The position numbers were made by a program, and so were the translations under genes. Below are positions 12,271 to 13,767 of a stretch of DNA of 64,000 nucleotides, one piece after another. Numbering within the stretch: the first letter of the stretch is position 1; every line of letters begins with the position of its first letter. Source of the DNA: Escherichia coli (lineage in GTDB: Bacteria; Pseudomonadota; Gammaproteobacteria; Enterobacterales; Enterobacteriaceae). Location: assembly GCF_003334305.1 (NCBI RefSeq), contig NZ_QOWS01000009.1. The stretch is one strand, 5' to 3'. The notes beneath the pieces are model-generated. The model did not search any database, was not told where the DNA came from, and saw only the letters and a list, made by a program, of their open reading frames with translations.

Positions 12271-13767
12271 ATGGCTCACCCTCATTTATTAGCGGAAAGA
12301 ATTTCCCGCCTGAGCAGTTCGTTGGAAAAGGGGCTTTATGAACGTAGCCACGCCATCCGCTTGTGTTTATTAGCGGCATTAAGTGGTGAAAGTGTGTTCC
12401 TCCTTGGCCCGCCAGGTATTGCCAAAAGTTTGATCGCCCGGCGCTTAAAATTCGCCTTTCAGAATGCCCGCGCGTTTGAATATCTGATGACCCGCTTCTC
12501 CACGCCGGAAGAAGTTTTTGGTCCCCTTTCTATTCAGGCGCTAAAAGATGAAGGGCGCTATGAACGTTTAACCAGCGGTTACCTGCCGGAAGCAGAAATT
12601 GTCTTTCTGGATGAGATCTGGAAAGCGGGCCCGGCAATTCTTAATACCTTGCTCACCGCCATTAACGAGCGCCAGTTCCGCAACGGTGCACACGTAGAAA
12701 AAATCCCGATGCGTCTGCTGGTGGCGGCCTCCAACGAGCTGCCGGAAGCAGACAGCAGTCTGGAAGCGTTATATGACCGCATGCTGATTCGTCTGTGGTT
12801 AGATAAAGTGCAGGATAAAGCGAATTTCCGCTCCATGCTGACCAGTCAACAGGATGAAAACGACAATCCGGTTCCTGATGCCTTGCAGGTCACAGATGAA
12901 GAATATGAACGCTGGCAGAAAGAGATTGGTGAAATTACGCTGCCCGATCATGTATTTGAGCTGATTTTTATGCTGCGCCAGCAACTGGATAAATTACCGG
13001 ATGCGCCTTATGTCTCGGATCGTCGCTGGAAAAAAGCGATCCGATTATTGCAGGCCAGCGCCTTTTTTAGCGGTCGCAGTGCTGTTGCCCCGGTAGATCT
13101 CATTTTGCTGAAAGATTGCCTGTGGTATGACGCGCAAAGCCTGAATTTGATACAACAACAAATTGATGTATTGATGACCGGTCACGCCTGGCAACAGCAA
13201 GGGATGTTGACTCGCCTTGGCGCGATTGTGCAACGTCACCTGCAACTCCAGCAGCAACAAAGCGATAAAACAGCCTTAACGGTAATTCGTCTGGGCGGCA
13301 TTTTCAGCCGTCGTCAGCAGTATCAACTTCCTGTTAACGTTACTGCTTCCACTCTGACTCTACTGCTGCAAAAACCGTTAAAACTGCATGATATGGAAGT
13401 GGTTCATATCTCCTTTGAGCGTAGCGCGCTGGAACAGTGGCTGAGCAAAGGTGGTGAAATTCGCGGTAAACTGAACGGTATCGGCTTTGCCCAGAAACTG
13501 AATCTGGAAGTTGATAGCGCCCAACATCTTGTCGTTCGCGATGTAAGTTTACAAGGCAGTACGCTGGCACTTCCCGGTTCATCGGCTGAAGGTCTGCCTG
13601 GTGAAATAAAACAACAACTGGAAGAGCTTGAAAGCGACTGGCGCAAGCAACACGCTTTATTCAGCGAACAGCAAAAATGTCTGTTTATCCCTGGCGACTG
13701 GTTAGGTCGCATTGAAGCCAGCCTACAGGATGTCGGTGCACAGATTCGCCAGGCACAACAATGCTAA
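12271..13767 (+). CDS. ravA: MoxR-family AAA+ ATPase RavA (498 aa)
   Basis: Walker A GPPGIAKS; start placed at [11 protein letters not shown] (ORF track extends 8 codons upstream). Confidence 0.9.

Follow-up and report, generated by a model that had tools for sequence, protein, structure and literature searches.

Overlapping ravA stop and viaA start codons in Escherichia coli and the probable route to ViaA translation

The stop codon of ravA and the start codon of viaA overlap by 7 nt in the 64,000-nucleotide stretch of Escherichia coli DNA analysed here (the window), and the sequence places the viaA start at position 13761 with very little doubt. Positions 13750–13769 read caggcacaac aatgctaacg, and in codons from 13747 the ravA frame runs cgc cag gca caa caa tgc taa cg. 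The shared heptamer ATGCTAA (13761..13767, + strand) specifies ViaA Met1-Leu2 as ATG CTA and RavA Cys498-stop as (T)GC TAA. Within it, the viaA start codon ATG (13761..13763, +) takes its A from the third base of RavA Gln497 (CAA), while the ravA stop codon TAA (13765..13767, +) is given identically by the sequence, the ORF listing and RefSeq. The ORF listing has one + strand ORF that closes at 13767 and another that spans 13761..15212, and as the inspected reading frames, this listing and the RefSeq gene ends all agree, the 7-nt ravA–viaA overlap proposed by an earlier, sequence-only reading of the window is borne out. Of 5426 complete E. coli genomes, 5417 carry the 70-nt junction. The overlap is already known and ordinary, being part of the standard annotation of a well-studied bicistronic operon and catalogued for K-12 as ‘NGHB#3646 -7 ... 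b3746 ravA / b3745 viaA’ (Huber et al. 2023, Supplementary Table 2, PMC10666635). As the operon is characterised and a published survey already tabulates the spacing, the overlap has little significance other than for bookkeeping. What is added here to the known annotation is that the distance is always –7, –4 or –1 in 80 species, together with a set of constrained synonymous sites.

The names ravA and viaA, also given by the sequence-only reading, are confirmed by full-length equivalog matches far above cutoff and by matches to solved structures. The ravA coding sequence (12271..13767, +; RefSeq, NCBIfam, PDB) encodes the 498-aa MoxR-class AAA+ ATPase RavA, which matches the NCBIfam equivalog NF010054 over residues 1–498 of 498 (993 bits, cutoff 681) and PDB entries 3nbx and 6q7l over its full length. 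In its translation we read a Walker A motif, GPPGIAKS, with K52, the residue changed in the published ATPase-dead RavA (PMC3893208), and a Walker B motif, FLDE, with D114-E115. The viaA coding sequence (13761..15212, +; RefSeq, NCBIfam, PDB) encodes its 483-aa VWA-domain partner ViaA, which matches NCBIfam equivalog NF008230 over residues 1–483 (879 bits, cutoff 500) and PDB 7ugc over residues 1–191. ViaA carries a MIDAS motif, D327-x-S329-x-S331, within VDTSGSM, whose three residues are invariant in 17 homologs, and ViaA homologs carry Pfam PF13519 and PF05762 as precomputed hits. Gene ends are those of the RefSeq annotation carried over from NZ_CP025318.1, which is 100% identical across window 12000–15400; the same region agrees with many complete E. 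coli chromosomes at 100% identity and has a match in 5423/5426 genomes, and the whole window is collinear with the annotated reference genome at 99.49% identity. In the RefSeq annotation of the identical genome kup and asnA flank the pair. At the 5′ end, the mechanical ravA ORF opens eight codons before the annotated ATG 12271, at TTG 12247; the annotated ATG has AAGGA ∼13 nt upstream, and crystallised RavA begins MAHPH. At the 3′ end, the viaA stop (ending at 15212, +) and the asnA stop (beginning at 15217, –) are convergent with 4 nt between the stop codons, so the terminator of either gene must sit inside the other gene.

If viaA instead began at ATG 13788 or ATG 13824 there would be no overlap, and we consider such a downstream start very unlikely. 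The viaA frame is closed upstream by a TGA (13713..13715, +) with no start codon from there to 13761, ATG 13761 being the first ATG, GTG or TTG past this stop. Close ViaA homologs are nearly all 483 aa long and keep residues 1–21 with conservative replacements only, and the N-terminus ML(T/S)LD(T)L(N) is conserved throughout Enterobacteriaceae. More remote relatives, at 33–64% identity, begin ML-x-x-D, ML-G-x-D or similar at ViaA residue 1, which is also where the NCBIfam ViaA profile match begins. When junctions are aligned on the ATG, the sites that vary are third positions of viaA codons from codon 2 onwards and ravA third positions 5′ of the ATG; this set includes, through a loose filter, about ten loci with a 1-nt overlap, which blur its upstream half and leave the downstream half unaffected. 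The ravA side carries a corresponding mark, as the Gln497 column is CAG in 11/71 species and CAA in 85%, compared with 77% CAG for conserved RavA Gln codons overall. Gln497 is constrained to CAA, its third base supplying the A of the viaA ATG.

The downstream in-frame starts (GTG 13785, ATG 13788, TTG 13812 and ATG 13824) were rejected, since residues 1–21 are conserved and Met10 is not. The nearest ATG (Met10, 13788..13790, +) is replaced by Ile or Leu codons in many species, follows nine conserved residues, and has an SD of –3.1 kcal/mol, which is no better. Reassignment of the start to a downstream ATG was the check named by the sequence-only reading, and the start at 13761 survives it, with Met10 often Ile and residues 1–9 conserved. 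In favour of ATG 13824 is the upstream AAGAGGGA, with an anti-SD duplex of –6.3 kcal/mol. However, the GAGGG lies 13 nt from this ATG, outside the usual spacing, and a start there is equally opposed by the third-position-only variation over residues 1–21, by the N-terminal motif that reaches residue 1 in the 33–64% identity relatives and by the family profile that matches from the same residue.

To place this junction among its relatives we scanned one genome per species and took the best 80 of 260, all of them Enterobacteriaceae loci. The VWA gene lies directly 3′ of the ATPase gene on the same strand in 80/80 of these loci, and in 9/9 loci from 8 distant relatives. Throughout the 80 Enterobacteriaceae species the stop of ravA overlaps viaA's first ATG, with no spacer in any. 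The overlap is 7 nt (ATGYTRA) in 50 species, 27 with TAA and 23 with TGA, 4 nt (ATGA) in 18 and 1 nt (TAATG) in 13, and these three forms all place viaA in one phase relative to ravA. The sole freely variable base of the heptamer is base 6 (A/G), which exchanges stop for stop in ravA and Leu for Leu in viaA. The form varies within Escherichia (–1 in E. albertii versus –7 in E. coli), Kluyvera and Kosakonia. As the 80 species are phylogenetically related, the counts do not represent independent events. The restriction to –7, –4 or –1, taken with the constrained synonymous sites, makes selection for a stop/start overlap likely in the Enterobacteriaceae ravA–viaA family.

The 4-nt overlaps are of two types. 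In a Klebsiella/Raoultella group (L048, L050, L051, L054, L056, L057, L064) ViaA codon 2 is missing, giving a 482-aa protein (MTLDMLNV...) and an ATGA overlap, whereas Pseudescherichia, Atlantibacter and some Kosakonia have a 4-nt overlap with the 483 aa kept and Ile at position 2 (ATGAT). The 4-nt geometry thus arose at least twice, by different routes.

Among 8 distant ViaA relatives, a small sample obtained by single look-ups, the distances are +3, –4, –1, +9, –4, +3, +113 and +18 nt. The distant pairs with spacers of +9, +18 and +113 nt indicate that the module does not need the overlap; on these sequences, the gene pairing is universal and the overlap is not. For the syntenic COG0714–COG2425 (MoxR/ViaA) pair, Huber et al. 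give a median spacing of ∼3 nt over 175 genomes (PMC10666635).

The only SD-like element at the viaA start is a weak AGG (13751..13753, +), 7 nt 5′ of the ATG, made up of RavA Gln494 CAG and the G from Ala495 GCA; its anti-SD duplex is predicted at –2.5 kcal/mol. Gln494 is CAG in 74/74 species, which ranks it 1 of 29 conserved Gln columns, with G 13752 as the synonymous site, and the CAGGC motif is seen in nearly all species' junctions. This synonymous constraint is mild evidence, from sequence comparison, that the AGG element matters. We found no occluding hairpin, the 100-nt junction folding less stably than 196/200 shuffles (z = +1.72). In a sliding window, the junction is neither more nor less stable or accessible than the average of the operon, and the initiation region has a mean unpaired probability of 0.34. 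An Rfam search of the junction gave no match. A consensus scan near the junction detected no + strand sigma70-like promoter, which is weak evidence, and terminator-like matches there were weak ones only, occurring at chance rate. The status of ravA–viaA as an operon is taken from the literature (PMC3893208).

The mechanism best supported by these observations, and in our judgement probably the one in use, is coupling of viaA to ravA by termination–reinitiation at reduced efficiency; the sequence-only reading had likewise taken the overlap to indicate translational coupling, which is plausible. A ribosome would end ravA at the TAA (13765–13767), remain on the mRNA, and re-initiate a few bases back at ATG 13761, which lies 4 nt 5′ of the ravA stop, assisted by the weak AGG element at 13751–13753. 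ViaA synthesis would then depend on RavA synthesis, as a fixed fraction of it. In our analysis the conserved overlap, the weak SD, the lack of an occluding hairpin, the presumed single transcript and the published native overlaps make such coupling most likely. The stop-to-start distance of –7 nt (–7, –4 or –1 across the 80/80 species) falls within the range permitting re-initiation, which is ∼–8 to +10 nt; coupling requires a distance below ∼20 nt and collapses with ∼20-nt spacers (PMC10666635). Of five native E. coli –4 overlaps tested, four show coupling by termination–reinitiation, and the fifth, bioBF, has a weak SD and initiates de novo (PMC6728339). Coupling efficiency drops faster with longer overlap than with spacer, and enrichment is seen at spacings of –4, –1 and –8, with –7 not among them (PMC12548453). 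Our literature search found no experiment on ravA–viaA coupling.

It is possible, though we think it the less probable course, that ribosomes bind de novo at the weak AGG/ATG within ravA, in which case the overlap would be a by-product of compaction and drift of the ravA stop. The synonymous conservation of the AGG (Gln494 CAG in every species compared) suggests a working ribosome-binding element, the junction region is not unusually structured, and bioBF provides a published native precedent for de novo initiation at an overlap with a weak SD (PMC6728339). The spacers of up to +113 nt in distant relatives are in line with such independence, as is the over-production of ViaA by a delta-ravA::cat strain without full-length ravA translation, a result confounded by cat read-through (PMC3893208). 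However, an AGG at –2.5 kcal/mol is a poor SD, and the coupling of the other native overlaps (4/5; PMC6728339) points the other way. Additionally, neutral drift of the stop predicts some short spacers, and the 30 species that are off the 7-nt state are all at –4 or –1.

Termination–reinitiation also has to be set against coupling through RNA unfolding, one of two general coupling models (PMC12548453), in which a viaA start paired with ravA sequence is opened only by ribosomes that reach the end of ravA. The low mean unpaired probability of the viaA initiation region (only 0.34) is what such a model would look for, but with a junction less stable than nearly all of its shuffles, average stability and accessibility and no Rfam element, we regard it as improbable. 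A RavA–ViaA fusion made by programmed –1 frameshifting close to the ravA 3′ end is more remote still and can be given almost no weight. The viaA frame is indeed –1 relative to ravA, and fused ORFs exist in databases (P0007, P0002 and P0097). However, TGA 13713 closes the viaA frame upstream, the 48 nt past this stop contain no homotrimer and hence no X XXY YYZ slippery site, and P0007 is an internal deletion that joins RavA 1–314 to ViaA and not a frameshift product. In this protein (Salmonella enterica serovar Infantis, 785 aa) the AAA+ module, RavA residues 1–314 at 91% identity, is fused directly to ViaA, while the LARA and C-terminal domains of RavA are missing, as are some 12 residues from the start of ViaA. 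P0007 is either a natural MoxR–VWA fusion created by in-frame deletion or an assembly artefact. P0002 (621 aa) and P0097 (658 aa) are over-long too.

The description of RavA and ViaA as a stoichiometric two-component module, which the sequence-only reading attached to the overlap, is not supported. Cells contain ∼350 RavA and ∼90 ViaA each (PMC3893208), the RavA–ViaA Kd is ∼2–19 μM and nucleotide-dependent, pull-downs fail to recover the partner (PMC9489729), and Huber et al. score the pair as ‘CMPLX not’ (PMC10666635). In the related NorQ/NorD system there is one NorD per NorQ hexamer, that is, a ratio of six to one (PMC9976466). Judged from the literature, RavA and ViaA do not appear to form a stable complex with a matched subunit ratio. 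If coupling is present, the ratio it sets is more plausibly sub-stoichiometric than equimolar, and a ViaA output held at a fixed fraction of RavA output would suit a partner present in sub-stoichiometric amounts beside a hexameric ATPase better than it would a 1:1 module. The ∼4:1 RavA:ViaA level fits partial re-initiation, but could equally reflect different protein stability. We offer only as a tentative and rather unlikely extension that the overlap is actively maintained and swapped among –7, –4 and –1 so that re-initiation efficiency fixes about one ViaA, or one ViaA dimer, per RavA hexamer, as in NorQ6–NorD1, with the less efficient –7 of E. coli tuning the ratio.

For comparison, the coupled native overlaps hyfHI, astDB and ydbH–ynbE as well as menDH (PMC6728339) resemble ravA–viaA in being co-directional on one transcript, as ravA–viaA is taken to be from the literature, with stop and start a few bases apart and an SD-like element in the upstream gene. 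They differ in that their overlap is ATGA (–4) and their coupling measured, whereas ravA–viaA has the –7 form, is expected to be less efficient (PMC12548453) and has its coupling inferred. NorQ/NorD and CbbQ/CbbO share with ravA–viaA a MoxR-class ATPase gene that adjoins a gene whose product, the partner, ends in a C-terminal VWA/MIDAS domain. However, NorQD is a defined complex with one NorD per NorQ hexamer (PMC9976466), while RavA–ViaA binding is weak and transient (PMC9489729). The E. coli K-12 pair (b3746–b3745) has the same genes, order and 7-nt overlap and shows no difference at the junction; in other parts of the window the present strain departs from K-12, one example being an lpf-O113 island after glmS.

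In practice, deleting or tagging the ravA 3′ end or the viaA 5′ end will disturb the other gene, since the same bases carry the viaA start, its weak SD and the final codons of RavA. The cross-species –7/–4/–1 pattern, with its constrained synonymous sites, also makes the pair a clean natural case in which to ask if the length of an overlap tunes how much adaptor is made relative to its hexameric ATPase.

Other gene pairs in the window overlap as well. Co-directional overlaps are found for pstC/pstA (1 nt, ∼39141), yidZ/mdtL (26 nt, ∼55744–55769) and yidD/rnpA (37 nt, ∼63682–63718), at positions that are reference-genome coordinates and may be offset by a few bases; with ravA/viaA included, 4 of roughly 50 same-strand neighbour pairs in the window overlap. 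The convergent genes mdtD (+) and rbsR (–) overlap at their 3′ ends by 35 nt (window 4145–4179). A four-gene long polar fimbria operon of the O113 type, lpfA–D, occupies ∼31825–36807 in the glmS–pstS interval (annotation from NZ_CP025318.1). K-12 presumably has no lpf genes between glmS and pstS, and the operon therefore marks the window as coming from a non-K-12 E. coli. Finally, the window covers the region around the replication origin, starting with a 16S rRNA gene (∼15–1556, –) and extending to rpmH/rnpA, and includes a 378-nt gap between mioC and mnmG (gidA) at 17353–17730, which is where the chromosome's origin, oriC, is situated.
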